Below are positions 1 through 56,975 of a stretch of DNA of 64,000 nt, piece by piece. A program made the position numbers and the translations under genes. The stretch is from NCBI GenBank assembly GCA_030390025.1, contig CM059431.1:123010001-123074000 (forward strand). Reading direction: 5' to 3'. Every line of letters starts with the position of its first letter. Position 1 is the first letter of the stretch. Under the pieces are notes generated by a model that worked only from the letters and a program-made list of their open reading frames with translations, was not told where the DNA came from and made no database searches. Source of the DNA: Squalus acanthias (taxonomy: Eukaryota).

Positions 1-439
1 CATACTTTAAAGAAAGGTAAGTTTATTTTTAGCACCGTTAAAAAGTTTAATTAATTTTTTCAAAAATGTATATTTTTGTTTAAAGCAGTTAATTTATGTA
101 ATTTATAGTTATCTTAAAAATGTGATGGTTTTTAAAAAATTTATTTGAAGTTTTAATGTGGTTTTGGGGCCGATCTCTATTCATACATTTGACAGGTCTT
201 CCTGTCAAATCTATGAATGAAACTTCCCTGCTAGGATTGACTCTCCATGGCCCACGTGATCCCAGGGGACTCTTCGAACTAACTGCGCGCCTGGGATACG
301 CAAGCACTGCGCGCCGGCAGCTGCAGGAGGCCCAGGATCCGAATTCCTCGTGGGCCCGAAGCACAACGGCAGGCGCGGTAGGTAAGTGCGCGCGCGATGC
401 TTGCACCCGCAGGAAGCCGGAGAGTCGAATTTCTGGCAC
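1..439 (+). mobile_element. Non-autonomous Harbinger-type element family A (MITE-like), 3' part, truncated by window start
   Basis: Colinear with full copies at 23579 and 43582; ends in TIR-like CGAATTTCTGGCAC followed by AAT; central hairpin ATTCATA...TATGAAT. Confidence 0.85.
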
Positions 440-621
440 AATGTTTATGTGTATTGAACAATATTTATGCGTAAAACAAGTCAAGAATATGTTTTTTTTT
501 CCATTTGAAAATAATGCACAATCACCAAAGTAATTCTGAGTGCAGTGAGAAATCAGGATGGAAAACTTTATCTGACTAACACAGTCCGTGTTCGAACTTT
601 TCATAAATCTCTAGAACAGTG

Positions 622-5185: not shown

Positions 5186-5223
5186 TCACAAGCTTTCGGA
5201 GTTAAAACTCCTTCGTCGGGTGA
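5186..5223 (-). ncRNA. Minimal type I hammerhead ribozyme of PLE (U4C core variant)
   Basis: Minus strand TCAC-CCGACGA-A-GGAG TTTTAA CTCC-GAAA-GC-TT-GTGA: stem I TCAC/GTGA, stem II GGAG/CTCC, palindromic AGCT in place of stem III. Confidence 0.7.
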
Positions 5224-5983
5224 AGTGAGGAGATACAGAATCGTCAAAGCATATATAGATAGAGAACAAAGCATGTGTAACTTACAATTGCAGACAACTG
5301 AATTCAATCATCCTGACTGTTTATCTGCCGAGGTGTGATAAAGTTAATCAGGTCAGCCAGGAAGGTACCACAGCAAAGACATAGCAAGATACAACTGAGA
5401 CAATGAGGTGGAATCGCATGGGGTCGAACGTGTCAAAAGCTGCCGTCTGTATGTAAAACGATTAACTTTAACATTTTTACTTTTTTACTGGGAATCACAT
5501 CTGTGAACAAGCCAACGACGACTCGAGTCCGGATCACGTCATGTATCGTGACATAAACCCAAGATCCCGATTGAGACCGTCTTCATGAGTGCGGAACTTG
5601 GCTATCAGTTATCCGCACTCATGAAGACGGTCTCAATCGGGATCTTGGGTTTATGTCACGATACATGACGTGATCCGGACTCGAGTCGTCGTTGGCTTGT
5701 TCACAGATGTGATTCCCAGTAAAAAAGTAAAAATTTTAAAGTTAATCGTTTTACATACAGACGGCAGCTTTTGACACGTTCGACCCCATGCGATTCCACC
5801 TCATTGTCTCAGTTGTATCTTGCTATGTCTTTGATGTGGTACCTTCCTGGCTGACCTGATTAACTTTATCACACCTCGGCAGATAAACAGTCAGGATGAT
5901 TGAATTCAGTTGTCTGCAATTGTAAGTTACACATGCTTTGTTCTCTATCTATATATGCTTTGACGATTCTGTATCTCCTCACT

Positions 5984-6021
5984 TCACCCGACGAAGGAGT
6001 TTTAACTCCGAAAGCTTGTGA
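5984..6021 (+). ncRNA. Minimal type I hammerhead ribozyme of PLE (mirror copy, U4C core variant)
   Basis: TCACCCGACGAAGGAGTTTTAACTCCGAAAGCTTGTGA, same architecture as 5186-5223. Confidence 0.7.
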
Positions 6022-6418
6022 TTTAAAATAAAACTGTTGGACTATAACCTGGTGTTGTGCGACCTCTCTATTTATGAAGCCCAGGATCCCATATGCTTTT
6101 TGAACCGCTTTCTCAACCTGCCCTGCCAGCTTCAATGATTTGTGCACATATACCCCCAGGTCTCTCTGTTCATGCTACTCCTTTTAGAATTGTACCCTTT
6201 AGTTTATGTTGCCTCTCCTCGTTCTTCCTGCCAAAATGTATCATTTTGCATTTTTCTGCATTAAATTTCATCTGCCACGTGTCCGCCCATTTCACCAGCC
6301 TGTCTATGTCTCCTTGAAGTCTATCACTATCCTCCCCATTGTTCACTATACTTCCAAGTTTTGTGTCATTTGCAAATTTTGAAATTGTGCCCTGTACACC
6401 CAAGTCCAAGTCATCAAT

Positions 6419-7171
6419 GACCCAGAAATTCCGGTTGGAGGCTTCCCGCGGGCGCAAGCCCCCGATCTGCACTTAAGAAGCACGCCTACCGTTATGCTCT
6501 GGGCCCGTGCAGAATTCCATTCCTGTGCCTGCTCCAGCTGCCGGTGCGCAGTGCTCGCGTATCCCAGGGGCGAAGCTAGTTCGCAGCGTCCCTGGGATCA
6601 CGTGGGCCATGGGGAGCCAATCGGAGCAGGGAATCTCCATTCATAGATTTGACAGGCAAATCTATGAATAGAGATCAGCCCCAAAACCTAAGTAAAACTT
6701 CAAACAAATTTTTTTAAAAAATCACATTTTTAAAATAACTATAAATTACATAAATTAACTACTTTAAACAAAAATTTAAATTTTTGAAAAAGATTATTAA
6801 AGTTTTTAACGGGTATAAAAATAAACTTACCTTTCTTTAAAGTATTTTAAAATGATAAACCTGTGGAAAAAATGTTTTACTTTTACTTTCTTCACCTCTT
6901 ACCTTGTTAAAAGCAGGCCTTACGCCTGCTTTTTCCACACGCAGCTGCCAGGACTTACCCGCACTGCATCAACTGAGAAAAAAGCAGAAGTTCGCTGCGT
7001 ACGCGCTGCCTCTCCGGCGCACGCAGTTGACCTGTGAACCCCTTCCTTCAAAAGAACGGAAGTTCCGGTTTCCAGTGCATGCGCAGTGCATGCACGAAAC
7101 CGGCACTTCTCTTGGCCCTACGGGTGAGTACACAGCGCGTACTCACCCGTAGGGAACGGAATTTCAGGGCC
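6419..7171 (-). mobile_element. Family A non-autonomous Harbinger-type element, full length, nested in CR1
   Basis: TIRs GACCCAGAAATTCC / GGAATTTCAGGGCC; flanks AAT/ATT; reverse complement of 23579-24342. Confidence 0.9.
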
Positions 7172-9474: not shown

Positions 9475-10126
9475 TACCTCCTCTTTCACCGACTTTGGCA
9501 GCATCTTCTTCCTTGGTGAAGACAGATGCAAAGTACTCATTTAGTACCTCAGCCCTGCCCTCTGCCTCCATGTGTAGGTCTCCTTTTTGGTCCCTCATCG
9601 GCCCCACCTCTCCTCTTACTACCCGTTTATTATTTATATGCCTATATGGCGTCCAAGATGCACGTGCACATTTATGACAGGAAGTGCACAGTGCGCCATC
9701 TTGGTGCAGGAGATCGCACTCACGAGATTAGCGCATGTCGGCAATATGTAGAGGAGAGAGTTCATCAGTTCAGTCAGTGCTGATTTGAGGCCCCCATTGC
9801 AATTTTGAAAGACCCCAGTCAATCATACGCCCTGTGCTCACATTGCTCAGTATAATGGTGGTAAACATCATTATGGCCTCCTCGCCAGTGGTACTTATAA
9901 GGTTCATGCAGGAATTGCGGGTAAATTGCTGGTTATTACTTTAAGCTGCTGCTTGAATTCTAGCCGATTTTTGCTGAGTTCTCCGGACTGTTGAAAGTTT
10001 AATTTGTTTACCCAGAGAGAGGTCTGGATGCTCTTGCACTCCTGGTTGCTGGGACTGTTGTCTGCATCACAAATTATTTGCCTGCAGACAAGGGTGGCCT
10101 GGTACGGCTGCCGCTGGAAATAGAGC

Positions 10127-13100
10127 ATGACTGGGAGCGTGAAGGAAGAAACCACAGAGCAGGACAAGCTGCCAGAAGAGGGAGGAGGAGCACTCAGCAG
10201 GAGGCCATATCCACAGAGGATCTTCAGCAAGCACTTCTCATACATCAACTTCAATGAGCATCAATGTATGAGGCGCCTTCACTTTACCAAGGAGTTTGTC
10301 ACCAAGCTACGTCACCTGTTGGAGCCGCAACTGCAGCCTCAGACCAGAACATGGACAGCACTGCCTGTGGCTGTCAAGGTCACCGCCACCCTCAACTTCT
10401 CTGCCACGGGCTCCTTCCAGGCTGCAACAGGTGACCTTAGCAACAACTCCCAGTTTGCAGTACAGCAATGTATCAGGGAGGTTATCTCGCTCAATACAGC
10501 AAGAGAAACACATCTCCTTCTCTATTGACAGAGTGAAGCAGGACGAGAGAGCTCTAGTTTCGCCTCATGGAGGGTTTCTCATGGTGCAGGGTGCCATTGA
10601 CTGCATGCATATTGCCCTGCATGCTCCCCATGAGAACTGTGTAATATTTGTCAATCGAAAGGGATTCCACTCCCTCAACATTCATCTAGTTTGCACCCAC
10701 AGGTAGAGCATTATACAGGTCTGTGCCCATTATCCCATTAGCAGTCATGACGCTTTCATTCTGCATCAGTCCTCTGTGCTGCCTATATTACAACCAGACC
10801 TCCAACTTAAGGACTCGCAACTGGGCTACAAGGGTTATCCCCTCCAGACATGGCTCATGACTCTGGTTAGGAAATCGCGCACACCTGCACAGCTGGAGTA
10901 CAATGACAGCCACACTGCCACAAGGAAAATTATCGAGCGGACAATCAGCAACGCTTCCATTGCCTGGCCATTTAGGAGGAACACTGCAGTAGAGTTTTTT
11001 TTTAATTTGTTTATGGGATGTGGGCATCGCTGGCAAGGCCAGCATTTATTACCCATCCCTAATTGCCCTTGAGAAGGTGGTGGTGAGCCGCCTTCTTCAA
11101 CCGCTGCAGTCCATGAAGGTACTCCCGTGAAGGTACTCCCACAGTGCTGCTAGGGAGGGATTGCCAGGATTTTGACCCAGCGACGATGAAGGAACGGCGA
11201 TATATTGGAGGGGAACTTGGAGGTGATGGTGTCCCCACGCGCCTGCTGCCCTTGTTCTTCTAGATGGTACAGATCGTGGGTTTGGGAGGCGCTGTCGAAG
11301 AAGCCTTGGCAAGTTGCTGCAATGCATCTTGTAGATGGTACACATTGCAGCCACGGTACGCCAGTGGTGGAGGGAGTGATGGGGTGCCAATCAAGCAGGC
11401 TGCTTTGTCCTGGATGGTGTCAAGCTTCTTGAGTGTTGTTGGAGCTGCACTCATCCAGGCAAGTGGAGAGTATTCCATCACACTCTTGCCTTGTGCCTTG
11501 TAGATGGTGGAAAGGCTTTGGGGAGTCAGGAGCGAGACACTCGCTGCAGAATACCCAGCCTCTGACCTGCTCTTGTAGCCACAGTATTTATGTGGCTGGT
11601 CCAGTTAAGTTTCTGGTGAATGGTGACTCCCAGGATGTTGATGGTGGGGGCTTCAGCGATGGTTATGCAGTTGAATGTGAAGGGGCGGTGGTTAGACTCT
11701 CGCTTGTTGGAGATAGTCATTGCCTGGCACTTGTGTGGCGCAAATGTTACTTGCCACTTACCAGCCCAAGCCTGGATGTCATCCAGGTCTTGCGGCATGT
11801 GGGCATGGACTGCTTCATTATCAGTGGAGTTGCGAATGGAACCGAACACTGTGCAGTCGTCAACGAACATCCCCACTTCTGACCTTATGATGGAGGGGAG
11901 GTTATTGATGAAACAGCTGAAGATGGTTGGGCCTATGACACTGCCCTGAGGAACTCCTGAAGCAAAGTATTGGGGCTAAGATGATTGACCTCCAACAACC
12001 AGAACCAACTTTCTTTGTGTGAGGTATGACTCTAGCCAGTGGAGAGTTTTCCCCCTGATTCCCATTGACTTCAATTTTACTAGGGCTCCTTGATGCCACA
12101 CTCGGACAAATGCTGCCTTGATGTCAAGGGCAGTCACTATCACCTCACCTTTGGAATTCAGCTCTTTTGTCCATGTTTGGACCAAGGCTGTAATGAGGTC
12201 TGCAGGCGAGTGGTCCTGGCGGAACCCAAACTGAGCATCAGTGAGCAGGTTATTGGTGATTAAATGCCACTTGATAGCACATTCCACCACTTTGCTGATG
12301 ATTGAGAGTAGACTGATGGGGCAGGAATTGGCCAGATTAGATTTGTCCTGCTTTTTCTGGACAGGACATACCTGGGCAGTTTTCCACATTGTCGGATGGA
12401 TGCCAGTGTTGTGGCTGTACTGGAACAGCTTGTCTAGAGGTGCGGCTAGTTCTGGAGCACAAGTCTTCAGTACGACAGCCGGGATGTTGTCGGGGCCCAT
12501 AGCATTTGCTGTATCCAGTGCGCTCAGCCATTTCTTGATATCACGTGGAGTGAATCAAATTGGCTAAAGACTGGCTTCTGTGATGGTGGGGATATCAGGA
12601 GGAGGCCGAGATGGATCATCCACTCGTTACTTCTGGCTGAAGATGGTTGCAAACGCTTCAGCCTTGTCTTTTACACTTACATGTTGGGCTCCGCCATCAC
12701 TGAGGATAGGGATATTCATGGAGCCTCCTCCTCCCATTAGTTGTTTAATTGTCCACCACCATTCATGACTGGATGTGGCAGGACTGCAGAGCTTTGATCT
12801 GATCCGTTGATTGTTGGATCGCTTAGCCCTGTCTATAGCATGCTACTTCCGCTGTTTAGCATGCATGTAGTCCTGTGTTGCAGCTTCCCAGGTTGGCACC
12901 TCATTTTAGGTACACCTGGTGCTGCTCCTGGCATGCTCTTCTACACTCCTGATTGAACCACGATTGGTCCCCTGGCTTGATGGTAATGGTAGAGTGAGGG
13001 ATATGCCGGGCCATGAGATTACAGAATGTGGTGGAATACAATTCTGCTACTGCTGATGGCCCACAGCACCTCATGGATGTCCAGTTTTGAACTGCTAGGC

Positions 13101-16990: not shown

Positions 16991-18784
16991 GGGCCGGAAT
17001 TTTGCCGGCACTCAGCAGACGGGATGGTTGGCGGGTCAGCTGTTAAATTTAAAATGATTGATAGCGGGTCGGGAACACGCTGCCAAAACATGCACACTGG
17101 ACTTTCCCAATGTCGGGTCTGCTAGCGCTGAGCAGACCTGACAGGCAGCGGCGGGGGAAGCAGTTAAGATCATTAGAGGCCTGTTTACAGCCACTTAACC
17201 ATGGTTTTTTCCCAGCTTTTTGAATTTGACAGGTCGTCCACTGGTTTTCCACTGTGCCTAGACCTCATCTGTCAAGCTGTGGGGGGAGGTCAGTGGCCAT
17301 TGAATCAGCTGTTGATTTGACAGCTTCAAATGTAGAGTAAAAGCTCCCACCTTAAAGAGATATCTTCCCTCAGCCAGAAACTCTTCCTCACTGCATTTCC
17401 ACAACAGATTCACCGTGCTGCAAGTCTTTACACAAGTCTCCATCCAGTATGACCTCATTATCTCTCTCAACATTGACAGATCGCTTCTATCATCTCTGCT
17501 TCACCTGCCATCTATTCCATCAGCATGGGTGCCCTTTCTACTCTCTCACCTTGGTCCTCAGAATCCAACCACGATCAGCGCCAGCAGCACCAGCACCAGG
17601 CACACCAGCAGCATCAGGCACACCAGCTGCACCAACAACAACACCTACCTTCTCCGCAACAACTGAAACTGCACAGGACACAGGGCATCAGCACCCAACC
17701 ACATTGCAGCCCAGGAGGCCAGGGATGGCCTCACCATGGCCAGATTTACTTCACTTGACGCTGTACACCCTGGCTGCCACATGATGCGCCAGGTTGGCAC
17801 CACCCCACACCAACAACATAAAGCATCCCTACAATGTCCAAGCCATTCCTTTCATGCTCATCACCATTGCAGGGGTGGTACCTTTATGTCTCACCATTCA
17901 CTGCAACTCACTAAGCCACTTCCAAAGGTGCACACAAATTTGTCCAAGAATGCTAAGTGTTTAAAATAAAGGTTTCAATGTTTGGCACCACATTAACAGA
18001 AACTTTACATGAACATTGGCTAAAACACCCAAGTGACTTCCTTCTGTGTTGTTAGTTGGTATGATTGCACTAGGATGAGAGTGAGTGTGTGTGAGGGGTG
18101 GCTAGTGAGATGGGAATGTGATAATGTAGATAGAGAGGGAAGGATGGACGTGCAAGATAAGTTGGTGTGAGAAGGATGTGCAGGAGTAGGGTAGGGAAGG
18201 CAGAGTGATGGGGATGTGTTGAGAGACACAGCAGGATGAGGTTGAGTGTGGCTTTGTACTAACGTTTCGTGATCTACTGAGATAATTGAAAAGTTTGCGA
18301 CACTGCACCCTGGTCCTCCTGACGACATCCCTGCTTGTGCCCTCCTCTGCAATGTGCAACCAGGCTGTGTTGATCTCCTGGGGAGGTCTCTTCCGCCCAT
18401 GGGAAGGGAAGAGGACCTCCCTGTGTGCTGTGACTCCCTCCATAAGCATATGGAGGGAGTCATGGGAGAGCCTCGGTGCAGCCCTGCACCTCTGTGCAGT
18501 GCTTGTCAGTGTTTGCAGCACCTCAATGCTGTAGAACACGGACAACACAAATGTCAAAATAAATTTGGCCATGGTCCCTTTAAGGTAACCGGCTGATGAC
18601 GCGTCATCAGATGACGTCATTAGACCCGCTTCCTCTTATTGGCCAGGCAATGCGCTGGGCGGGCCTAACAAGCCCTGTCAGGGGAAATTCATTTCAGAGG
18701 CCGGGATGGAGCCAGCAGCGGGGTTGAGACCCGCCACCGACGTCACCCGCCATGGACCCGCCGAGTTAAGTAAAATCGCGGCCT
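16991..18784. mobile_element. Non-autonomous Harbinger family B, long (~1.8 kb) form retaining a Myb/SANT-like exon on the minus strand
   Basis: TIRs GGGCCGGAATTTT / AAAATCGCGGCCT; ORF 18102..18620 contains PRLSHDSLHMLMEGV..REVLFP..AWLHIAEEG..RRTRVQCRKLFNYL (Myb/SANT-like); second copy at ~41150-42914. Confidence 0.85.
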
Positions 18785-21882: not shown

Positions 21883-22096
21883 ACATTGAACAAGACATTG
21901 GGCAGTTAAAGTGCTCTCTAGATCATAGGCAATGCGGAATCCAATTAAGAAAGTGACCAGTGATGCTGAACCTGAGAGAATACCTACTGTAGACCCATAA
22001 AATATAATGATGCGGAGATGCCGGTGTTGGACTGGGGTGGACAAAAATGAGAAGTCGCACAACACCAGGTTATAGTCCAACAGTTTTATTTAAAAT

Positions 22097-22132
22097 TACG
22101 AGCTTTCGGAGCGCTGCTCCTTCTTCAGGTAC
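22097..22132 (-). ncRNA. Minimal type I hammerhead ribozyme of PLE, canonical core
   Basis: Minus strand GTAC-CTGAAGA-A-GGAGC AGC GCTCC-GAAA-GC-TC-GTA: CUGANGA and GAAA boxes, 5-bp stem II, UH cleavage site, short stem I TAC/GTA. Confidence 0.8.
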
Positions 22133-22389
22133 AAGTACAGTGAGGGAATACAAATCGGCAGTATATATACACAGAGAGCAATTTGTCTGCAGAGATACAA
22201 TCTGTTAGGAAGATATTACATCAAAGACACCTCAGAGTACAGCTAAGACAATGAGGTGGGTCACAGGGGGTCCAATGTGTCAAATGTTGCCGTCTGCAGT
22301 TGAGTTTTTAACTTTTTTTTTGGTTTTTTTTTTGGTTGTTTTTTTTTCTCTGTTTTTTTTAAACTGGAAAGACAGACAACGATGTCGAG

Positions 22390-23082
22390 TCACGTTCTGT
22401 AGCATGACATGAACCCGAGGTCCCTATTGAGGCCATCCTCATGGGTGCGGAACTTGGCTATCAGTTTCTGCTCGATGATTTTGCGTTGTCGTGTGTCTCG
22501 AAGGCCGCCTTGGAGAACGCTAACCCACAGATCCGAGGCTGAATGTCCTTGACTGCTGAAGTGTTCCCTGACTGGGAGGTAACAATCCTGCCTGGCGATT
22601 GTTGCGCAGTGTCCGTTCATACGTTGTGTCAGTGTCTGCATGGTCTCGCCGATGTACCATGCTCCGGTGCATCCTTTCCTGCAACGTATGAGGTAGACAA
22701 CGTTGGCCGAGTCACATGAGTATGTACCATGTACCTGGTGGGTAGTGTCCTCACGTGTGATGATGGTATCTGTGTTGATGATCTGGCATGTCTTGCAGAG
22801 CTTGCCGTGGCAGAGTTGTGTGGTGTCGTGGTCGCTGTTCTCCTGACAGCTGGGTAATTTGCTGCGAACGATGGTACTTTTGAGGTTAGGCGGCTGCTTG
22901 AAGGCGAGTAGTGGAGGCGTGGGGATGGCCTTAGCGAGGTGTTTGTCGTCATTGATGACATGTTGAAGGCTGCGAGGAACATGGTGTAGTTTCTCCGCTC
23001 CGGGGAAGTACTGGACGACGTAGGGTACTCTGTTGGTTGTGTCCCATGTTCGCCTTCTGAGGAGGTCTATGCGGTTTTTCAC
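22390..23082 (-). pseudogene. PLE ORF C-terminus: linker with Cys motif plus GIY-YIG endonuclease (RT domain lost by truncation)
   Basis: PPLLAFKQPPNL, CHGKLCKTC, VVYLIRCRKGC..WYIGET..QRMNGH, VREHFSSQGHS, EQKLIAKFRT..GLN; the Cys linker resembles Neptune-type PLEs. Confidence 0.9.
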
Positions 23083-23578
23083 TGTGGCCCGTTGGAACTG
23101 TCGATCGATGAGTCGAGCGTCATATCCCGTTCTTACGAGGGCGTCTTTCAGCGTCCATAGGTGTCCATCGACGATTCCGACGGGTTGGACGTGCTGATGG
23201 TGGCCTTGTACTAGTGATGCAAGAATCTGATCCTTAGTGTTATACCAAATATTCAGGTATTGCTGGAAATTGTGCTAGAATGAGCTTTAATCATTCTAAA
23301 CAGCCTAAGAAAAATGTCCAGAATGAAAATAGGCTGACACAATCTGAGAGTGTTATAATGATCCTGTTCTTTGCTGTCTGAAATAAAACTGTTCCAGGTT
23401 CCCTATTAATAGTACTATGGGAGCTTTAACTTTGACTTCTCCATCTCTGTGGCAACTTCCATGTAACTTTGCAACTCCCTAGCAACCTTCCTATTCTTTC
23501 CAGCTTTCTTCCTGTCTCTCAAGCCATTACTCCAGTTTTTAGCGATCATGTTGTCATCGTGCACTTTTCTAAAAAATT

Positions 23579-24342
23579 GGGCCAAAAATTCGGCGCTTGT
23601 CGGGTGAGTACGCGCTGTGTACTCACCCGTAAGGCCTCCTGACGTGCCGGTTTCCTGCATGCACTGCGCATGCGCGGGAAACCGGAACTTCTGGTCTCGT
23701 GAAGGGAGCGGTTCAGAGGTGAACCGCGTGCGCGGTAGAGGCTGCGCGCATGCAGCGAACTTAGTTTTTTTTTCAGGTTTCTCCGGGAGGGTAAGTATTG
23801 AAAAAGCTGCGCTTTTAAAAAGGAGGCGCAGGACCCGTTTTCAACAAGGTAAGTGGTTAATTAATTACAATTTAAAAAATTTTTCAACAGGTTTATCTTT
23901 TTTAGATACTTTAAAGAAAGGTAAGTTTATTTTTAGCACTGTTAAAAAGTATTTAAATTTTTTCAAAAATTTTAATTTTTGTTTAAAGTAGTTAATTTAT
24001 TTAACTTATAGCTATTTTAAAAATGTGATGTGTTTTTTTTTAAATTTATTTGAAGTTTAGGTGTTGTTTTGGGGCCGATTTCAATTCATAGATTTGACAG
24101 GTCCTGTCAAATCTATGAATGAAAGATGGTCTGCTGCCATTGGCTCTCCATGGCCCACGTGATCCCAGGGGACGCATCGCACTAACTACGCCCCTGGGAT
24201 ACACAAGCACTGCGCGCCAGCAGTTGGGGCAGGCCCAGGAGCTGAAGTCCCCGTGGGCCCAGAGGTCAACGGCAGGCGCGGTAGGTAGGTGCGCGCGGGA
24301 TCCTTGCACCCGCGGGAAGCCAGGGAGCCGAATTTCTGGGCC
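23579..24342 (+). mobile_element. Family A non-autonomous Harbinger-type element, full length (764 bp)
   Basis: TIRs GGGCCAAAAATTCGGC / GCCGAATTTCTGGGCC; flanks ATT/AAT; near-identical to 40070-40832. Confidence 0.92.
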
Positions 24343-28600: not shown

Positions 28601-30187
28601 GGGCTGGATTTTACCAGCCCTGAGGAGGCAGGTTTGGAGGCGGGACTGCTGGGAAATTCAAAAAGAATGGGAGCGGGTCCCAAACTCGCTCCTAACCCGC
28701 CTCCAACCAATCTTCCCGGGAGTCGGTCCCCAATTTGCGCAGGGACCCGACTCCTAGCGGCGGGTAGAGGATTATAGCCACTTAACTGCCTGTTAACAGG
28801 CAGTTAAGAGGCATTTTCCCATTTTTAGACTTCTGCTGCGGGCTTCCTGACGTTGGGGAACCCGCCAGGGTAAGTGCTGTGGGTCTGTTGTTATGTTGGT
28901 GTACAGATGACAGCTGCAGAAGTGGTGTGAAGGATGCAATGGGACACTGGTGAGTATCAGAGGTAAGGAAATGTTGGGAAAGTCATTTTTATTGGCCCAA
29001 AAATTAGTCTTAGTACGCGAGAGTACGCACTGTGTACTCTCGCGTATTCTGTCTCCAATTGCCGGTTTTCTGCATGCACTGCGCATGCGCTGAAAACCGG
29101 CACTTGGTGAACTCAAAAGGGGGCGGTTCCTATGTGAACCACGTGCGCGCTACAGGCTGCGCGCACGCAGTGCACTTAGTGCTTTGAACGCGCAGGTAAG
29201 CATGGAAGATTTTGCACATAAAGAAAGGAGGCGTGACCCTCTTTTAACAAGGTAAGTAGTTAATTAAGTATTATTTTAAATTTTTTTCAACAGGTTTATC
29301 TTTTTTAGAGACTTTAAAGAAAGGTAAGTTTATTTTTATAACTTTTAAAAAGATTTTAAATTTTTTCAAAAATTTAATTTTTTGTTTAAAGTGGTTAATT
29401 TATTTAACTATACTTATTTTATTAATGTGAGGGTTTTTTTTAAAATTTAATTGAGGTTTAGCTGTTCTTTTGGGGGGTATAGATTCATAGCTTTGACAGC
29501 CCTTGCTGTCAAAACTATGAATGAAAGATGGTGTGCTGCCATTGGCTCTAACTGAATCACGTGATCCCATAGCTCGCACGAATTAACTGCGTCTCTGGGA
29601 TACGCACACACTGCACAGCTGCAGCCTTGAAACTAAAGTTCGTGTGAGCTCGGAAGGAAAAGGTAGGCGCGCAGTGAGATATCACGGGGAAGCCTTACCC
29701 CCGCAGGAAGGCTCCGTCTTTAATTTTGGGCCAATGTGTTTAGATTTTTCTGTAGGTGACAAGCTTTGAAGTGTTTGTGTGGCCTCACCTCATTGGGAGT
29801 AGTGACAGATCACTTTTGTACACTCACCTGCAGCTGCCATCTGTTTCATCCTAAGGAGAGAGTCATTGGAGAGTCTGGGTGCAAGGGCTCACCTTTGTAC
29901 AGTGATTGCCAGTGTTTGACAGCACCTCAATGCTGTCAAACACTGTCAAATCATTGTCAAAAATTTATGGTCATGTGCCTTTAAGAAAAACGGCAGATGA
30001 AGCGTCATCAACTGACGTCATTTGACACAGGCTTTCCTTTAATTGGCCAGCAAGCCCGCAGGGTGCATTTAACAAGGTCAATCAAGGGAAAATAGCGTCT
30101 GTGCATCGGACGTCGCTAGGAGTAGGACTAGAGCCTGGAAGGCAGCAGTCCCGCCCCCAACTTGTCTCGGTAAGTAAAATCAAGCCC
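28601..30187. mobile_element. Non-autonomous Harbinger family B short form, containing a nested family A element
   Basis: TIRs GGGCTGGATTTTAC / GTAAAATCAAGCCC, TSD AAT/AAT; homologous to 3571-4431 once the insert is removed. Confidence 0.85.
28994..29732 (+). mobile_element. Family A element, subfamily A2
   Basis: TIRs GGCCCAAAAATTA / TAATTTTGGGCC; flanks ATT/AAT; closest to 52802-53542. Confidence 0.9.
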
Positions 30188-40069: not shown

Positions 40070-40832
40070 GGGCCAAAAATTCGGCCCTTCCCGGGTGAGT
40101 ACACACTTCTACTCACCCGTAAGGCATCCTGAAGTGCCGGTTTCCTGCATGCACTGCGCATGCGCGGGAAACCGGAACTTCCGGTCTGGTGAAGGGAGCG
40201 GTTCAGAGGTGAACCGCGTGCGCGGTAGAGGCTGCGCGCACGCAGCAAACTTAGGTTTTTTTTCAGGTTTCTCTGGGAGGGTAAGTATTGAAGAACCTGC
40301 GCTTTTAAAAAGGAGGCGCAGGACCCGTTTTCAACAAGGTAAGTGGTTAATTAATTATAATTTTAAAAAAATTTCAACAGATTTATCTTTTTTAGATACT
40401 TTAAAGAAAGGTAAGTTTATTTTTAGCACTGTTAAAAAGTATTTAAATTTTTTCAAAAATTTAAATTTTTGTTTAAAGTAGTTAATTTATTTAACTTATA
40501 GTTATTTTAAAAATGTGATGTTTTTTTTTAATTTATTTGAAGTTTAGGTGTTGTTTTGGGGCTGATGTCAATTCATAGATTTGACAGGTCTTCCTGTCAA
40601 ATCTATGAATGAAAGATGGTCTGCTGCCATTGGCTCTCCATGGCCCACGTGATCCCAGGGGACGCATCGCACTAACTACGTCCCTGGGACACGCAAGCAC
40701 TGCGCGCCGGCAGTTGGAGCAGGCCCAGGAGCCGAAGTCCCCGTGGGCCCAGAGGTCAACGGCAGGCACGGTAGGTAGGTGCGCGCGGGATCCTTGCACC
40801 CGCGGGAAGCCAGGGAGCCTAATTTCTGGGCC
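40070..40832 (+). mobile_element. Family A element, full length
   Basis: TIRs GGGCCAAAAATT / AATTTCTGGGCC; flanks AAC/ATC; near-identical to 23579-24342. Confidence 0.92.
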
Positions 40833-41149
40833 ATCATTAGCCCAGAATGTATATTTACCTTTCTAGACCATGGATTTAACTGTCATCCAGAATAATGGCA
40901 TTAAAGTGTTCTCTCTCTGCTAGTGATTAGGGTCTTGTGCCCATATTAACTTAGACAGTAAGAACACAGGGCCCGAAATTCCTGGGGTGGGAGGGGAGAT
41001 AAGCAGATCACTCACAGCAGGCTGCAAATTGGGGCAGAACCTGGGTCCGCCAGGCTTCCATTCCATCTTGCCGCACATTCCTAACAATTTCAGACCCTCA
41101 GTTTTTAGTGGGAGCAGGCACATATTAAAGTCACAATTTCAGAGATTTT

Positions 41150-43581: not shown

Positions 43582-44314
43582 GGGTCAGAAATTCGGGTCT
43601 CCACGGGTGAGTACGCGGTGTGTACTCACCCGTAGACCCAACAAAAGTGCTGGAAACCGGAACTTCCGTTCCCCTGAAGGAAGGGGTTCAGAGGTTGATC
43701 GCGTGCGCCGGAGAGCCAGCGCGCATGCAGCGAACTTCGGTTATTTTTCAGGTTTCTCCGTGAGGGTAAGTACGGAGAAGCTGCGCGGGGAAAAAGGAGG
43801 CGCAAGGCCTGCTTTTAACAAGGTAAGTGGTGAATTAAGTACAATTTAAACATTTTTTCAACAGGTTTATCTTTTTTACATACTTTAAAGAAAGGTAAGT
43901 TTATTTTTAGCACCATTAAAAAGTGTAATTAATTTTTCAAAAATTTAAATTTTTGTTTAAAGTAGTTAATTTATGTAATTTATAGTTATTTTAAAAATGT
44001 GATTTTTTTTTTATTTATTTGAAGTTTTAGTGAGGTTTTGGGGCCGATCTCTATTCATAGATTTGACAGGTCTTCCTGTCAAAATCTATGAATGAAGATT
44101 CCCTGCTCCGATTGGCTCTCCATGGCCCATGTGATCCCAGGGGACGCTTCCAACTAACTGCGCCCCTGGGATACGCAAGCACTGCGCGCCGGCAGCTGCA
44201 GGAGGCCCAGGAGCCGAATTCCACGTGGGCCCGAAGCACAACGGCAGGCGCGGTATGTAAGTAAGCGCACGATTCTTGCACCCACGGGAAGCCGGAGAGC
44301 AGAATTTCTGGCCC
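43582..44314 (+). mobile_element. Family A element, full length
   Basis: TIRs GGGTCAGAAATTC / GAATTTCTGGCCC; TSD ATA/ATA. Confidence 0.92.
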
Positions 44315-46380: not shown

Positions 46381-48041
46381 TTTGAAACTGTGCTACAAGT
46401 TTTCTATATAAAGGATCAGCTCTTTAAGCTGAGAAAAGTCATCAAGCTTTTTGAAGGAGTCTGATGTTTCTGATGTCTTCCCAAAAGGGTGCAGATAAAT
46501 CGATATTCTGAAATTATATAAAAATATGATTGATATCTTGAACCACAAAGCACTTACAAAGGGATCGAACATGCATTAATAGATGTAACAAGTAACTACA
46601 TATGTTACCCTTTCACGAAAGAATACAGAATTCACTGGTGAAAGGCCTTGAAGAAAATGTTGATAGCAAGTCTCTTAAGTGACTTGGCCAAGATTTCCTC
46701 TGTGTGCTGTGTGTAACAGAATCATAAAGCAGTTCTTTATAAATGGTTTTACTGATAGTGCACAGGGGGAAATTTTCTTTTTTTGAAACTATGACTTTTA
46801 CTTAAACATATACTTTTTCTTTTCTTTCTTTTTGGCTGGGATTATCTGAAGCAAATTGCAGATCCATTTGAAAATCAATTGAAAAAATAAATTTTACCAC
46901 CCCCTGTGAACTTCCCTCTCAGAATGTAATGTTATACAAAATATCGTCCCCTACTTTCTCCAGTAGCGTGATTTGATACTTTAGCTGAGTTATTATGCAG
47001 TTAGTTTGGTTCCTACAGAAAGAGAACGCTCCTACTCAAAATCGCATGAAGGCAACATATATCATCGCAAACAGATTTGGCAAGGTAACTGGGATTGACT
47101 TGACACAAAGAAGCAATTTTTAATTTAATTTCGAAAAATCGATAGCTATCTTATAAGTGAATCTAGTTTTCTGTTGTGACAAAAATGTACATTTAGTCTG
47201 TGCTGAATTTATTTGTATTGCTACAAACAGCATTTACAGCATTTAAGTGATTAACTCTTGAGGTCGCACAAGGGAATTTTCAAAGCCGTCAGCTCAGACT
47301 GGACAGTTTGGCTACAAAGTCCCCACAAAGTGCACGTTTCTATGACCAACACAATGAAAGGAGAGTGGAGGGAAGTGGGGGGGGTGAGCAAAATGTGAAC
47401 TGTTTCATATATCTGAGCCATTACATTGAATCACAAACATCTTTACCATTGTCAGAGATTGGCTATCCATTCAATATTAATGAAGGTCTGTTTGATCTAA
47501 CGTAATCGAGAGATGCAGCCATCCATTTCATTTTGCTTCTGTATACTTCAAAGGAGGTCAAATTATATTTCTGTGAGTAGACTGTTTACCTAGGAGGCCG
47601 TCGGCATTTCGTGTCTTTCAGCCAAACACTGCAAAGCTGCATGTTTTTAATGTTTTATGCTGGCCTGACAAGAAAGTTAGGCCAAATAGAGGCCGCAGTA
47701 AATAAACTTCTGTTTAAAGTCATTGGGGGCTAAATTGGATAGCCCAAGAAAACGGGCGCGGGATCGCGATCCGCAATTACCCTGCGCCTGTTCAGTGTAA
47801 TGCATGCAGCATGCCAACTTTATGCTGCATGCTCATTATAATGATTGCTGTGTGCAGCCAGCGCTAACCGTACTGATCATTGGCTGCACGCATCAGCAGG
47901 GGCCTAATATCATTACTTGCTAGCACTACTTAAAGCTAGCCTGCACTGCTTCAAGCTAGCCTGCACCTCTTAAAGGGAAGGTGCATTGTGGCTGCTGGAG
48001 GTGTTGAGATCATTCGGAATAGTGCTGTGCAACAAACAACA

Positions 48042-49935
48042 ATGGCTGACCATGGAAGAGAGTGTGCACCAAAGGTTTGCCAACGCTGAACTAGAGGTCT
48101 TGGTGGAGAAGGTGGAAAGAAGGAGGAGCAATGTCTGGCATCTGCAGGGAGGTAGGATATCCTCCAGACACACAATGAGAAGGCAGTGGGAACAGATAGC
48201 CGCAGAGGTCAATGCCAGGAGTTTAGCCCCAAGGACGTGTAGGCAGTGCAGCAAGAAGTTTAATGACCTCATGCGAGAGGTCAAGGTCAGTGAATGCATC
48301 TTCAAATGTCATATTCTAACAACTGCACCACCTGCTTCAGCCACTGCTCAATTTACCATACTCCCATCACTCACCTACCAACATTCTTTATCAATCAGGA
48401 CTCATACCTAACATTCAGACACTTCATCTCATTCTCACACACTTAGCACTGTTGCAAGCCTCACACCCACATCTCACAGCTTGCACACACTGCCAGCTAT
48501 TCAACCATGACAGTTACATTACCCAAACATATTGCACAACACTCACTGACACATTTCCCTCTCTCTTGCAGGAGCAGATGGCGCACAACTGGAGGCAGCA
48601 GGAACTAATTGGAGGGGGAGTTGCAGGCCTGTATGTTCTAATCCCCATGGAGGAGACAGTGCTGATTATTATGTGGAGGGCCATTGCTGAGACCGTGTCC
48701 AGCAGCGGGGCTGATTTCCATTGGAGATGATGGTATCCTCATACCTAATCCTCCTTCTCACATCACACTTCCCCCTCAACCCACAATCTCTTCTGACTTA
48801 CAAGCTGCAGATGGCGGAAGCATTCACCTCTTATTTTCTCCTCTCCCCTCTTGACAACCTTACCCTTGTCCCTTTTTCCTTTCAGATAGCCAAGAACTGC
48901 AACCTACCCAGGCAGTGGAGAAAGACCAAGGAGACAGTGATGTTGAAGAGACACCTTCATTTGATTCCACACTCGCAGCCACCAGCTCAGATACAGGCAC
49001 ATCAGGTATCTTAGAGGTGGGATCTGCATATAGTGAGGCACCGAGCACAAGTGCACTGCAGCCAGGAACAGGGGGCAAGGATAGCGCAGGTGCCAACTTG
49101 CCGGAGGGCGAGGTCGCAAATGAATTCTGCTGCACAGGACTCAGATGAGGGTTTTGATTGCCCAGGCTACAGAAGAAGGTTGATGGGTATACACAACAAA
49201 TTGCTTGGTGCTTTGGGAAGCCTGCCAGAAAACCTGCATTCAATGTCAAGGAGCATGTAGGAGGCAGGCACCAACTTGGCACAGGGCTTTGTGCAAAGCT
49301 TGGAGCCCATCCTTTCCAGGATGGAATTGGTGGCCAACTCCATCAACACAATTGTGGAACCAACTATGGTGCAGTGTCTGATGGCTGATGTCTCGGCTTC
49401 CATTGCATCACAAGCAGCATACACCAAAAGTCTGAAATCTGCAATTGAAGCTCAGACTGCTGTCTTGCAAGTTCAGACTGCTACCATCATGGCTGTGGAT
49501 ACTAGTGTTGAAAGGGACTTGCAGGGTGTCACAGGAGTCCAGCAATATGTCCTCCAACAGATTACTAGGATTGCTGAGGTGCCGCCATGGGGGAGTGGCA
49601 ATGGCTCCAAGGGGCATGAACCTGCTGTCCTCTCTCAGGATGACAGCATTCATGCTCCCACCTGTGCCATTCCACCAGTGCCCATGCTTTTGCCTGTCAG
49701 CCAGCCAGCACAGACTACTGCTGCCCATGCCGAGATGGTGCAGTCTGAAGCCGGGCCTTCTAGGCCCAGAGCTGCTCGAGGTCGTCCTCCAAGGCCATCT
49801 GCAGTCTCCCCCACTGAAAGTCAGCAGCCTTCCACCAGTCATGCTGCAGCCACTGTGGTAGCACTTTGTAGGAGCACTAGGACAGGCAAAGGCACACGGA
49901 AGACAGGCACCGAGGGAATGCAAAATTGTGATTAG
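48042..49935 (+). pseudogene. Harbinger Myb/SANT-like DNA-binding protein gene, 3 predicted exons (~48042-48285, 48572-48732, 48886-49935), disrupted
   Basis: RFANAELEVLVEKV..RRQWEQIAAEVNA..RTCRQCSKKFNDL; splice signals AAG|GTCAGT, TTGCAG|G, ATG|GTATCC, TTTCAG|A; frameshifts and a TAG at ~49258. Confidence 0.82.
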
Positions 49936-50097
49936 TTTCATTTTGTATGGAATATGGCATGATTTAATTGATCAATTTGGTTTGGACTGTGTTGGCTTTT
50001 ATTTTTGCATTGTGGCCAAGAGGACGATGTGATGGTCAGTGACAGAGAGAAGGTAAGGAGTGTGGGACTGTTGGTGAACGGGGAATTGGGGTTGAGG

Positions 50098-51230
50098 TTA
50101 CTGGTACCGCACTTGAATTAGTTCTTCACGTACAACCTGGGCAGAATTGGGCAGTCTAGGTTGCAGCCTCCCGTCCTTTTCCTCCTCTTCCACCTCCTTG
50201 TCCTCCTCTTCCTCATCCTCCTTTTCCTCTTCCTCATGCTCTTGCTGCTCAGCTTCTCGCTTAATAGGTGGTGGCAAGGGCTGTTCCCTCATGATGGTAA
50301 GGTTGTGCAGCATGCAGCATACCACCACAAATCTTGAGACCTACTCTGTCGAGTACAGGCAGTGGAATCGTTGCTTCAGGATGCCAATGGTCTGCTCTAT
50401 CAGATTTCTTCTGGCATCATGGCTCTCATTGTATGCATGCTGCGCACGTTGTGCGTGGTTTGCAAACCGGAGTCATGAACCATTTCATCAGTGAATAGTC
50501 TTTGTCACCCAGTAGCCACGCTTTGGTTTGGCATGCTGGCTGAAACACAACTGGCACAGCGGACTGCTGCAGAATTAACTGATCATGTCTGCTGCCGGGC
50601 ATTGACCTGCATGATGCACTGCCTATGGTCACTCACCAGCTGCACGTTGAGGGAGTGGAATCCCTTTCGGTTCCGGTACATGGCAGAGTTGACATGAGGC
50701 GCAGGCAAAGCAATGTGCATGCAGTCAATGGCACCCTGCACCGTGGAGAAGCCTGCAAACCTTGCAAACCCTCGTGCTTGCTCCATCTGCTTCTCTCTGG
50801 CAAGAAGAAGTGAAATGAAGTTATCTCTCTATGAATAGAGGGCCTCAGTGACCTTCATTATTCTACTGCATGATGTTGCAAATATCTCCAGCACCAGCCT
50901 GGAAGGAACCAGACGCATAAAAGTTCATTGCCACGGTCACCTTCACAGCCGCTGGTAATGATGTCCTTGCCCTGCTCTGAGGCTGGAGTTTTGGCTGCAG
51001 CAATTGGCAGATTTCAGTGATGACCTCCTTAGTGAAGCGCAGACTTCTCAAACATTGGTCGTCGCTGAGGTTCAGGAAGGAGAATTGTTCCCTGAACACC
51101 CTGGTTGAGGCCCTTCTCTCCCTCCTCCTCCTCCCTCTTCTAGCAGCTTGACCTGCTCTTCATGGCCTCTGTTCATTCTCCCAGTCATGCTCGATTCCAA
51201 GAGCAAGGCCTAAAAGTCCACCCAAGTCTG
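50098..51230 (-). pseudogene. Harbinger DDE transposase (HARBI1-like), disrupted
   Basis: FREQFSFLNLSDDQCLRSLRFTKE, VKVTVAMNFYASGSFQ, VQGAIDCMHI, YRNRKGFHSLNVQLV, WLLGDKDY, VVCCMLHNL, acidic tail; split over frames. Confidence 0.9.
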
Positions 51231-52801
51231 AGAGCAACTGGTTTGTTCAGAGCCTTTAAGTTAGCAAAAATACTTCAGCACCTGCCACACCACTCCCTGT
51301 ACACTACTGAAACTTGAAACAACTATGGAACGCACCAAAAACATGCAGAATTGTAACAACCGCCAGAAGAAATAAACCAGCAACTAACCTGTAAGTAGTT
51401 GATAATCCCTTTAAATAGCACTGGTGGGAGGTCCTTTATGCAGCTTAACACGTGTTCAGCTGTGCAAGCTTAAGAGAGGGCACCGGCTGGAGTGTGGAGC
51501 TCGAAATGGCCGTGCTGGTGTCAAATCCGCATTGCACGTCTGCTCTGCATATGTCCAGTGTACGTTAAGTGCACGTGCACTAATCCCTTTACTAAGGTGG
51601 CGTCTGGCGCACTTCACGTCAGAAGTGTGCGCGAGCACTCGGACAGCATTTTGGAACCCTAAGGTCCCTCATAGGTACCGAGCCCAGTTTCGTCCCCATT
51701 GTTTAGGGAAAATGTGAGTGTCATAATTATTATTTTATGTATTGATGAGGGTAGATAAATATAAATTTCACATTGTTATACAGTTTATCTATCTGTTGTA
51801 TGTCAATTAAAACACGTTATTCCAGTTACAGTGTACATCCAGTCCAGTTAACAGCATGTGATACATTCCAGTAGCTAACGTAAAAATTCTTTGTTATAAT
51901 CCCTGGATCCTGCTCGCCTTTACCTGGATATTGAGCAGAAAAAGGAATGCTCTTGATTTTAAGGGATATGCAGGTAGCGATCCTTCTCTGTGAACCTGTC
52001 TGAAATCAGTTGGGATCACAGCAGAGATTGAAGAAAAATATAGATGGTCAGGCTCAGCAGAGCCTCACCCCACGATGACCCACCACTAGCCTCTCCTTCC
52101 CCATCCTCTGCATGCAAATGGTGGTGGAGGGTGGGGCTCGAGACATTGGCGGTTTTGCTTCCTATCCACCTGTGTTACCGTCATTTCCCGGGATCACCAT
52201 AGGGAAGGTGGCAGAAGGCCCAGGATAGCAACTGTAATAGCCCTGAGGTGTCCCTTGGAGAGAGAGGGCCTTGTAGTGGCCTCCCTGTCCCTCCATTCTG
52301 CCCCCGATGACATACCTGTGTAGGCCTCAGTCTCTGTCAAATCCTGCTGGGCTGCAGCTTCTGCCATCATCGGGGTGCTTCTGCCCCTTTAGATCCATCT
52401 TTACCTCTTGTGGTGCTGCAGTGCCAGTCCTGCTACAGCACCATTGACATCTCTCTTGGGGCCAATGGCAGGCTCCCTCCTGGCAGCAGGAATCCCGCTG
52501 GAAGCTTGCCATGCATTGGAAATGACCCCAGACCCAGCAACATGAGTTGAGGTTGGGGTGGATTCAGGGGCCAGTGTGGAGAAATTTGGCTAATGTCTGC
52601 TTACAGGACTGGTCAGTGACACTGAGTCTGGGCAAAAAAAAATCGAGTGTACAAACCCCAAAACATGACAGTTGTTAAGTATAAAATGACAATAGAAGTT
52701 AACTGAGATAATGCTGGAAACTTCTGAATACAAGAACATTTATGGCTGGATTCTCCTCCCATTGCATGGTTTGTGGTGGGGTGGTCCTAATACTAACCAT
52801 T

Positions 52802-53542
52802 GGCCCAAAAATTAGTGCCGCTACGCGAGAGTACGCACTGCGTACTCTCGCGTATTCTGTCTCCAATTGCCGGTTTTCTGCATGCACTGCGCATGCGCTG
52901 AAAACCGGCACTTGGTGAATGGAAAAGGGGGCGGGTCCTAGGTGAACCGCGTGCGCGCTACAGGCTGCGCGCACGCTGTGCACTTAGTGGTTTCAACGCG
53001 CAGGTAAGTACGGAAGATTCTACACATAAAAAAGGAGGAGTAAGACCCACTTTTAACAAGGTAAGTAGTGAATTAAGTATTATTTTGAATTTTTTTTAAC
53101 AGGTATATCTTTTTTAGAGACTTTAAAGACAGGTAAGTTTATTTTTATAACTTTTTAAAAGATTTTAAATTTTTTCAAAAATTTAATTTTTTATTTAAAA
53201 TGGTTAATTTATTTAATTATACTTATTTTATTAATGTGATGTTTTTTTTTTAATTTAATTGAGGTTTAGCGGTTCTTTTGGGGGGCTATAGTATTCATAA
53301 CTTTCACAGCACTTATGTGAAAGTTATGAATGGAAGATGGTGTGCTGCCATTGGCTCTAACTGAGTCACGTGATCCCACAGCTCGCACGAATTAGCTACG
53401 CCTGTGGGATACGCAAGCCCAGCACACCAGCTGTCCAGAACATCAAGTTCGTGCGAGCTGGAACTGAAAAAGCCAACGCGCAGTGAGAGATCGCGTAGAA
53501 GCCTTACCCTCGCACGAAGGCTTCCTCATGAATTTTTGGGCC
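52802..53542 (+). mobile_element. Family A element, subfamily A2
   Basis: TIRs GGCCCAAAAATT / AATTTTTGGGCC; TSD ATT/ATT. Confidence 0.92.
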
Positions 53543-55799: not shown

Positions 55800-56975
55800 G
55801 CAACATGCCTTTTTTCATGGAAATGTTCTGAAGCACACAACATGCTATAATGGTCCTGGAGACACGGGTTGAGCTGTCCTGTAGTAGTCCACCTGATTTA
55901 CCCAAGGCGAGACTTCTGAATGGCTATAGTTTGCATCAATGACACTTCTTCTGCTTCCACGGGTCTCATTGGCCCTGAATTTCTGATCGGAGGCTTCCTG
56001 TGGGCGGATGCCACCGCTCGGAAAAAAACCTACGAACTTACCTGCTGGTTCCATCGATACCGAGGCTTGCGATCCTGGGCCTCTCCTCTTCGAAATGCGC
56101 AGAGGCCCATGTATCCCAAGGGTGCATGCGGTTTGCAAGTGCCCCTGGGATCACGTGGGCCAGGCAAACCAATGGAAGAAGGGAATCTCCCTTCATACTT
56201 TTGAGAGTTCCGTACGCACAGAAATGTCAAAAGTATGAATGGGGATGACTGCAAAAATGCACCAACACACTAAAATAAATAAATAAAAACTATTACATAT
56301 GTAAAATTAATTAAAATGCGATTTAATTAAATATTTTAAACAAAAATTTTATTTTTTGAAAAATAAATTTTTATGTTTTAAAGAGGCTAAAAATAACTGT
56401 ACCTTATTGCACAGGTTTTTTAATGTTAAAATGATTGGAAAAAAATTATTTTTAATGTTATTTTAAACTCTTGTGCTGGTAAAAGAAGGCCTTACGCCTG
56501 CTTTTACCAAGCATAAGAATTCTATGGTCTTTCAGCGGGCGGAAGTTGTGCAAAAAGCGCAAATCTCCACCCGCAGAGGCACTTTTCTTGGGCAGGCGGA
56601 GGATTGGTTAAGAGAATTCTTGACAAATCGCAAGTGCCGGTTTTCAGCGCATGCACTTTGCATGCATGGAACCGGCACTTGCGCGGCCCCTACGGGCGCG
56701 TACGCACCTCTTACGCACCCGTAGGGGTCGCAAAAACCGGCACATATCTGTTCTCCTCGAATGTTTGTGGAATGCTCACTGGAGTCATGAACCTTAAGTG
56801 GAGGGGTTAACCAACATAATACATGGCCTTGAGTCATGAGGGCTGCAATGGTGGATTGTTGCATGATTGATCAAAAGATCATGGCAACTCACCAGATATC
56901 TGACATTGACATGTAGGATTAGGTGATTAGCATGATATACACGGGAAACCCGTTCTGCTCATGAAATAAAGGGGA
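55800..56975 (-). pseudogene. Old Harbinger transposase relic interrupted by a family A element
   Basis: Minus-strand FMSRTGFP (~56945-56965) and CVLQNISMKKG (~55808-55840) resemble the NRKGFH and CCxLHN motifs. Confidence 0.5.
55971..56743 (-). mobile_element. Family A element, divergent subfamily A3
   Basis: Same module order inverted (GGGATCACGTGGGCC, CCAAT, central hairpin, AT-rich core, GCCGGTTTTC..GAACCGGC, terminal hairpin); left TIR GGCCCTGAATTT. Confidence 0.82.

Follow-up and report, generated by a model that had tools for sequence, protein, structure and literature searches.

Internal palindromes that co-vary between subfamilies of a non-coding Harbinger-type element, with a probable role at the DNA level

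The window, by which we mean the whole 64-kb stretch of DNA analysed here, is rich in repeats, with LINE fragments and Harbinger remnants, and contains eight copies of a non-coding element that measures 733-773 bp at full length. All eight were recovered by blastn, and a profile search of the window returned the same copies and no ninth, in agreement with the initial annotation, which had described eight copies of a non-coding family of the cut-and-paste type. The frames that overlap them are low-complexity stop-free frames only. Pairwise identity between copies ranges from 53 to 94%, and a tree separates about five lineages. The copies are the following.

1..442, + strand: c1, whose left part lies beyond the window edge
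6419..7171, - strand: c2
23579..24342, + strand: c3, the reference copy, a putative non-autonomous Harbinger-type element of ~750 bp
28994..29732, + strand: c4, nested inside an element of a second Harbinger-type family (28601-30187)
40070..40832, + strand: c5
43582..44314, + strand: c6, which has lost most of palindrome H4 by a 28-nt deletion
52802..53542, + strand: c7, which carries most compensated pairs
55971..56743, - strand: c8, the most diverged, 53-62% identical to the other copies

The element has GG..CC termini and imperfect terminal inverted repeats of roughly 14 bp, of the form GG..AAATT, with 11-12 of 14 bases matching in c3-c7. Its ends are GC- and CpG-rich, on both sides of an AT-rich middle (in c3, 56-61% GC and CpG observed/expected 0.7-1.2 at the ends, 18% GC in the middle). 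Outside the palindromes, c3 shows these features.

23579..23592, + strand: left terminal inverted repeat, in agreement with the right one at 12 of 14 bases; flanking triplet ATT
23790..23925, + strand: three donor-like GGTAAG words (23790, 23848, 23920) and pyrimidine-rich acceptor-like stretches
23850..24060: AT-rich middle; its conservation between subfamilies about equals, or exceeds, that of the end regions outside stems
24139..24161: CCAAT on the minus strand (24139-24143) and CACGTG (24156-24161), present in 7/8 and 8/8 copies
24329..24342, - strand: right terminal inverted repeat; flanking triplet AAT, whose middle base is unlike that of the left triplet

The three GGTAAG words and the acceptor-like stretches are kept in six of the seven full copies, and c8 keeps one word of the three. 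The CCAAT and CACGTG words resemble promoter boxes. Judged from its ends, flanks and neighbours, the family appears to be a non-autonomous PIF/Harbinger-type (Tourist-like) element that would be moved in trans by a transposase together with a Myb-like helper. A Helitron-, SINE- or IS605-type origin is ruled out by terminal inverted repeats at both extreme ends together with Harbinger-like flanks. Between 0.55 and 0.86 of the element's sampled words were present in ten DNA runs (five organisms and one further sample), and only 0.06 and 0.04 in runs X19 and X20. For run X1, summed contig depth had a median of ~1.2 million on the element vs ~20 on its flanks, a rough measure that is not a copy number. 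This depth, taken with eight copies per 64 kb, indicates that the genome probably holds tens of thousands of copies or more. Searches of public metagenome contigs, viral contigs and prokaryote genomes for further copies gave 0 matches.

Other Harbinger-type elements lie in the same window. Pfam matched four of ten frames, two with DDE_Tnp_4 (10272-11069) and two with Myb/SANT domains (18105-18635 and 47974-48408), Myb_DNA-bind_5 being among the matches. Two kinds of element stand out.

47725..51697, + strand: decayed autonomous-type two-gene Harbinger, with the Myb/SANT frame at 47974-48408
28601-30187, 3571-4431, 16991-18783 and about 41100-42913: the second Harbinger-type family, two members of which have Myb-gene remnants

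On its minus strand, the element at 47725-51697 has a stretch that resembles the DDE_Tnp_4 remnant at 10069-11069; its GG..AAATT ends are similar to those of the eight-copy family, and its triplets are exact (ATT/ATT). It would illustrate the kind of helper present, not a proven partner; neither blastn nor the profile search found internal similarity between the eight-copy family and the DDE/Myb elements of the window. It also holds perfect palindromes at 47802-47832 and 47852-47889. The second family is bounded by the GG..AAATT pattern as well. In it, palindromes of the form TGTCAGTGTT..AACACTG occur near 29910, 3815 and 42632, with another palindrome at 28781, and the series CCAAT / TGACGTCA / TTAAAGGG near the right end is promoter-like. 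The member at 3571-4431 is a paralogue that provides the empty site for the c4 insertion. Its own position is 23 bp within a further end, of the GGGGGGTAAAATT type (3548-3571), so that Harbinger-type elements nest in each other's ends.

Two further features were noted. Positions 5134-6073 form a 940-bp near-perfect palindrome, 98% self-complementary, with 123-bp perfect core arms around a 16-nt loop; it is related to a Penelope-like repeat at about 22007-22466 and looks like a recent fold-back duplication. Just upstream of c3, on the minus strand, a 294-residue stop-free frame (22393-23274) shows, on visual inspection, a resemblance to a Penelope-like element at its endonuclease end; it had no Pfam match at E 0.01.

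Flanking triplets were surveyed in ten Harbinger-type elements, the seven copies with both ends and three others; an eleventh, with an unclear boundary, was excluded. Two of the seven copies, c6 and c7, have exact triplets (ATA, ATT), four differ at the middle base only and one at the third base. Over the ten elements, triplets are exact in four, differ only by an A/T mismatch at the middle base in five (6419-7171, 23579-24342, 28994-29732, 40070-40832 and 3571-4431) and differ at the third base in one. Mismatches were thus found at 5/10 middle vs 1/20 outer positions (p=0.009). At the single empty site, the simplest reading is an AT duplication of 2 bp that is flanked on either side by one additional base.

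In the available portion of PMC4482050, which is also our source for the group rules that follow, the definition of a PHIS group rests on its target site and its second gene. TWA triplets occur in 0/7 copies and the triplets are A-W-T-like, so that the family departs from the strict PIF/Harbinger rule. Two other groups, Pangu (ANT duplications) and ISL2EU (AT duplications in A|AT|T), can both begin with GG, as the element does. Flanks are A-N-T-like in four of the seven copies, one of them exactly; the ISL2EU rule fits c2 exactly, and c3 and c4 only if the element ends T..A. Neither rule therefore fits all copies. Moreover, the second frame is described as having no known motif in Pangu and a YqaJ domain in ISL2EU, whereas the autonomous-type elements of the window carry Myb/SANT domains. 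Excision of rice mPing has been reported to proceed by staggered cuts within the duplications (PMC4561436, in the portion available). From the few cases at hand we infer that the middle-base mismatches may be explained by carry-over of a donor overhang at integration. No report of middle-base-mismatched duplications was found by title or abstract start in the open-access literature.

Between the terminal repeats, the element contains inverted repeats, given here for c3.

23601..23629: H1, 11-bp palindrome with a 7-nt loop, an inverted pair of CGGGT; three compensated pairs across copies
23647..23685: H4, 9-bp palindrome with a conserved 21-nt loop; one compensated pair in the core
23708-23727: H5, lineage-restricted, perfect in c3 and c5 only
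23726-23753: H6, lineage-restricted palindrome
24084..24120: H2, 18-bp AT-rich perfect palindrome whose loop length differs between copies
24162..24200: H3, 9-10-bp palindrome with a 19-20-nt loop; two compensated pairs
24250..24316: H9, imperfect inverted pair with a long loop, close to the right end; a perfect 10-bp pair in c7

The coordinates and sequences of H1-H4 in the initial annotation held when checked against the copies. Its description of the loops as freely varying applies to the length of the H2 loop, the only one in which a length change was seen, and not to H1, whose loop is 7 nt in 6/7 copies, or to H4, whose 21-nt loop is nearly invariant, ranks among the most conserved stretches and is as conserved as the H4 stem. 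This loop contains TGCGCATGCG at 23665-23674, which we take to be an NRF1-like word. The H2 stem is perfect over 16-18 bp, with 97% of cells paired, and two adjacent pairs in it each show three different Watson-Crick states. In c8, the enlarged H2 loop (56191-56240) holds GTGCGTACG, a 9-mer found also in the H1 of that copy, either as a templated insertion or by chance. Copy c7 contains the 10-mer CTCGCACGAA three times, at 53382-53391, 53448-53457 (inverted) and 53509-53518, a number reached in 0/2000 shuffles. Palindromes are also gained and lost between subfamilies, as seen for H5, H7, H8 and this triple motif; H5 is not kept in five of the six other copies that cover it.

Inverted repeats are far more frequent in the element than expected. 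Full copies hold 4-6 perfect stems of at least 8 bp, vs 0.1-0.3 in 40 block-wise dinucleotide shuffles each, and the cut copy c1 holds two (shuffle mean 0.10, shuffle maximum 2). Stems of at least 9 bp number 30 within the 5.7 kb of copies and 25 in the remaining 58.3 kb. To score compensation copy by copy, stems were taken from c3 alone, H5 included, giving 56 pairs. Eight pairs are compensated in c7 (0/200000 shuffles), five in c4 (3/200000), four in c8 (1540/200000) and none in c1, c2, c5 and c6. The structure as a whole was scored on the four core helices H1-H4, with H5 left out (45 pairs, 327 cells). Nine of the 45 pairs have changed on both sides, 29 never vary, and 96% of the cells are paired; none of 500 shuffles matched any of five measures, and slid controls gave 0-3 pairs. 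RNAalifold pairs in the AT-rich middle were dropped, as they show almost no covariation. These results confirm that the covariation of the four internal palindromes is real and above chance, and with it the central observation of the initial annotation, that internal inverted repeats stay paired across the eight copies while their sequence changes.

The covariation, for which phylogeny was taken into account by counting events, traces back to few of them: nine pairs account for 11 new Watson-Crick states. The compensated states fall on only three or four branches (to c4 and c7, the c7 tip and the long branch to c8), plus one loop-edge pair in c4, and they are clustered, with two within 3 nt in H1, three within 6 nt in H2 and two adjacent in H3. 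Arms of the c4, c7 and c8 types recur, in loose contig ends, in other public contigs and organisms, and are therefore subfamily characters. Read contigs yielded 142 site variants (40 of them listed), without arm-to-arm haplotypes.

Palindrome arms evolve slowly, being 1.2-5 times more conserved than the rest of the element. With five chosen stems of c7 (five of its seven), arms show 0.03-0.07 changes per site vs 0.19-0.26 in the rest in five pairwise comparisons, and 0.23-0.25 vs 0.44-0.51 in the comparison to c8. When all perfect stems of a third copy (c7, c8 or c4) are used, the values are 0.04-0.16 vs 0.18-0.27, and 11 of the 12 comparisons, which are not independent, reach p<0.02; one of the four comparisons with c8-defined stems shows no slowing (p=0.42). 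Copies c5 and c2 differ by 26% outside stems; within the stems, 46 pairs have stayed the same in both and compensated pairs are absent.

A purely neutral process could in principle yield matched arms, if template switching bears and homogenises palindromes in a heavily replicated element, those shared between copies being functionless survivors. Such a process would account for the palindromes that appear and vanish between subfamilies, and the compensations do follow the background mutation spectrum. In addition, picking stems present in several copies biases toward conserved stems, and the slowing is smaller with all stems of an outside copy. However, neutral homogenisation expects arms to change at the background rate, in pairs, as opposed to what is seen between c5 and c2, and the slowing persists in all but one of the third-copy comparisons. 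Because arms are slower than the rest of the element, neutral homogenisation alone fits poorly, and we consider it unlikely. The slow arms support the view that the internal inverted repeats are actively maintained, and the palindromes are probably under selection. The coming and going of H5, H7 and H8 means that mutation, too, supplies inverted repeats. Repeated template switching, one of the options raised by the initial annotation, is compatible with the data as a step that matches the arms, but alone leaves their slow rate unexplained.

Another of those options was a structured RNA, for which an enrichment of G·U-compatible mismatches on one strand had been proposed as the sign. No G·T excess was found on either strand. 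The 15 non-paired cells of the 327 in the core include two G·T and four A·C, and the 38 distinct mismatches of an unbiased stem scan include five and ten, respectively (p=0.30). Only 3/11 compensations are transitions, reachable via G·U, in line with the background transition share of 0.34-0.43 (p=0.76) and, on these small numbers, below the 61% given for rRNA in the available part of PMC8794818 (p=0.03). Rfam gave no match at the gathering score over the whole 64-kb window; a scan of the copies gave one match, in c5, at chance level (E 0.77).

Sequencing runs guessed to be RNA were compared with DNA runs at the level of contigs, which cannot reveal strand, ends or expression level. The element would, on the RNA reading, make a structured and possibly spliced transcript from an internal promoter, aiding its mobilisation or protecting it. 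Its CpG-island-like ends, promoter-like words and three donor-like words are what such a transcript calls for; eight guessed-RNA runs from organisms A and E contain 0.37-0.41 of its words, and two guessed-RNA contig sets span the whole element. With RNA parameters, the left part folds slightly better on the element's + strand in 6/7 copies, and in X13 (guessed RNA) the left part stands 2-5 times above the middle relative to DNA run X6, the X13/X6 ratio running from 0.09 to 0.55 with its highest value at the left end, although the two runs come from different organisms. Against this, RNA depth in organism A tracks DNA depth (Spearman 0.89, the ratio across 27 bins staying at 2.0-5.7 per thousand), the 15 joints listed, of 22, all lie in a DNA run with no spliced joint of a guessed-RNA run among them, and c8 has lost most donor words. 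With mostly transversion doubles, no Rfam match and no RNA peak in contigs, the structured-RNA option is disfavoured, on negative evidence that is weak, limited to contigs and small in number, and we hold a functional transcript to be quite improbable. The pattern is symmetric between strands, and the palindromes probably act at the DNA level.

At that level, selection might act on base pairing itself, with hairpins or cruciforms extruded in supercoiled DNA, or in the single-stranded DNA of donor-site gap repair that raises copy number, aiding synapsis, bending or faithful copying. H2 is what would be expected of such a structure, with a perfect AT-rich stem, a loop that varies and two positions that each occur in three paired states; the strand symmetry suits DNA, and a similar palindrome lies at equal distance from the end in the second Harbinger family. 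DNA folding of both strands is far better than that of 20 shuffles each (z -11.6 and -9.6), values that are inflated by the mixing of AT-rich and GC-rich parts. By contrast, the 29 invariant core pairs point to a constraint on sequence, the H4 loop is conserved as well as its stem, and the repeated 10-mer of c7 gives mutually exclusive pairings. To our knowledge no DDE cut-and-paste element has been shown to depend on hairpins in its interior, and no eukaryotic case was found in the open-access literature. Selection on pairing as the general explanation is thus possible yet doubtful. H2 is nevertheless the strongest candidate among the palindromes for a true hairpin or a cruciform, and a hairpin reading for H2 may hold alongside a binding-module reading for H1 and H4. 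Slightly less probable still is a broader proposal, that the family belongs to a long-lived vertebrate cut-and-paste lineage in which folded internal DNA hairpins serve mobilisation or copy gain, and donor-overhang carry-over leaves the middle-base-mismatched duplications.

Host selection on copies exapted as enhancers or promoters could also preserve palindromic factor sites. There is a precedent in the frog Xenopus tropicalis, where copies of Harbinger-N12A_XT, with internal palindromic repeats and NRF-type sites, are described as enriched at liver open chromatin (PMC12676858, in the text available). In the family studied here, though, subfamilies share the conserved and compensated states across a wide set of contigs and organisms, which places their fixation in source elements and not at single loci, and we regard exaptation as a very improbable cause.

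Our leading reading, to which we give a little less than an even chance, is that the palindromes are duplex binding modules, selected in transposition and kept matched by arm-to-arm template switching. It is based on the eight copies of one 64-kb window. Under this model, the transposase and a Myb-like helper would move the element in trans, and most palindromes would consist of two recognition motifs in inverted orientation, read as double-stranded DNA and without strand preference. Binding of the helper, of host factors or of both would raise a copy's chance of mobilisation, and selection for mobility among copies would keep the arms at the slow rate observed. A tolerated change in one arm would be copied onto its partner by a short template switch, so that both arms would change together and resemble RNA-style covariation. 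Inverted pairs of protein-binding motifs, the best fit for subterminal palindromes, were missing from the three options of the initial annotation.

Several observations bear on the binding-module reading. The word CGGGT occurs 3-4 times per copy in c2, c3, c5 and c6, twice in c8 and 0-1 times in c4 and c7, whereas GCGAG occurs 3-5 times in c4 and c7 and 0-1 times elsewhere; the motif is switched at both ends, for words that were picked after viewing the data and with the left- and right-end switched words offset by two columns. The three CTCGCACGAA copies of c7 cannot all pair, since their pairings exclude one another. The fixed spacing of H1, the conserved H4 loop and the invariant pairs suggest sequence recognition. 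GCGGG/CGGGT words are also numerous in the second Harbinger family, where a palindrome containing TTTGACA lies ~240 nt from the end, as H2 does here. On the other side, the H2 loop varies in length and two of its positions show three Watson-Crick states, neither of which a dimer site of fixed spacing needs. The four core helices have no one motif in common, so that several binding proteins would be needed. Template switching would be marked most clearly by an inverted loop, and none was noticed by eye among the four core loops.

Support was also sought in a 9-mer, the putative Myb site of zebrafish Harbinger3_DR. It exceeded dinucleotide shuffles at two mismatches in 7/8 copies but ranked 521 of 129818 GC-rich 9-mers and was reached by 23/5040 permutations; being unremarkable among such 9-mers, it was set aside.

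Known systems share parts of this pattern. Published sources are cited in what follows for those portions of their text that were available. Tourist-like MITEs such as rice mPing (PMC2836001, PMC9921582, PMC4561436) are likewise short and non-coding, with GG..CC repeats of ~14 bp, a 3-nt target register with an A/T middle, very high copy number and internal sequence that affects mobility. The effect of the mPing interior has been ascribed to general features such as GC content, and the text searched mentions no palindrome or hairpin (PMC9921582), whereas discrete palindromes co-vary here; again unlike mPing, half of the flanking triplets in our survey mismatch at the middle base. Harbinger3_DR and Harbinger3N_DR represent a vertebrate Harbinger that uses transposase together with a Myb-like protein, as proposed here, the zebrafish Myb-like protein binding a 9-bp subterminal motif (PMC9710019, PMC2836001). 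The NuwaI group targets CWG (PMC4482050); the present family has an A-W-T-like triplet and palindromes up to 260 nt inward, and binding to them is a prediction. The frog element Harbinger-N12A_XT, which we compared by description only, is 342 bp long, and covariation of its palindromes goes unmentioned in the portion of PMC12676858 examined.

Outside this superfamily, coral CMITEs have an internal region more conserved than expected, for which an aid to transposition was proposed; they are piggyBac-type elements of about 100 bp, and the text searched mentions neither hairpins nor palindromes (PMC2872659). Template switching is known to create and repair stems in RNA genes (PMC8794818), where clustered multi-base compensations likewise arise in one step within perfect stems; that system concerns RNA genes, while here there is no RNA signature and no loop inversion was noticed. 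The accessible parts of PMC3413126 and PMC9179366 contain nothing on MITE internal structure, and the latter did not examine cartilaginous fishes other than the elephant shark. The premise of the initial annotation that MITEs need mainly terminal inverted repeats is too strong in view of the mPing interior, which tunes mobility (PMC9921582), and of the palindromes in the frog MITE (PMC12676858). For the same reason its term 'undescribed system' was overstated, while 'undescribed variant' is fair as judged on the open-access literature, in which we found neither this family nor any eukaryotic MITE whose internal palindromes are described as co-varying.

The interiors of MITEs are usually taken as inert filler, and in this family discrete internal palindromes show paired changes and probable purifying selection. 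The family thereby provides a mutational scan, carried out by nature, of the features with which a non-autonomous element can outcompete others for transposase, a question still open for MITE amplification. It also serves as a warning, in that a DNA element without an RNA signature can pass RNA-style covariation tests. Finally, if the mismatched triplets hold genome-wide, staggered cutting by PIF/Harbinger transposases within the duplication would become testable from sequence alone.
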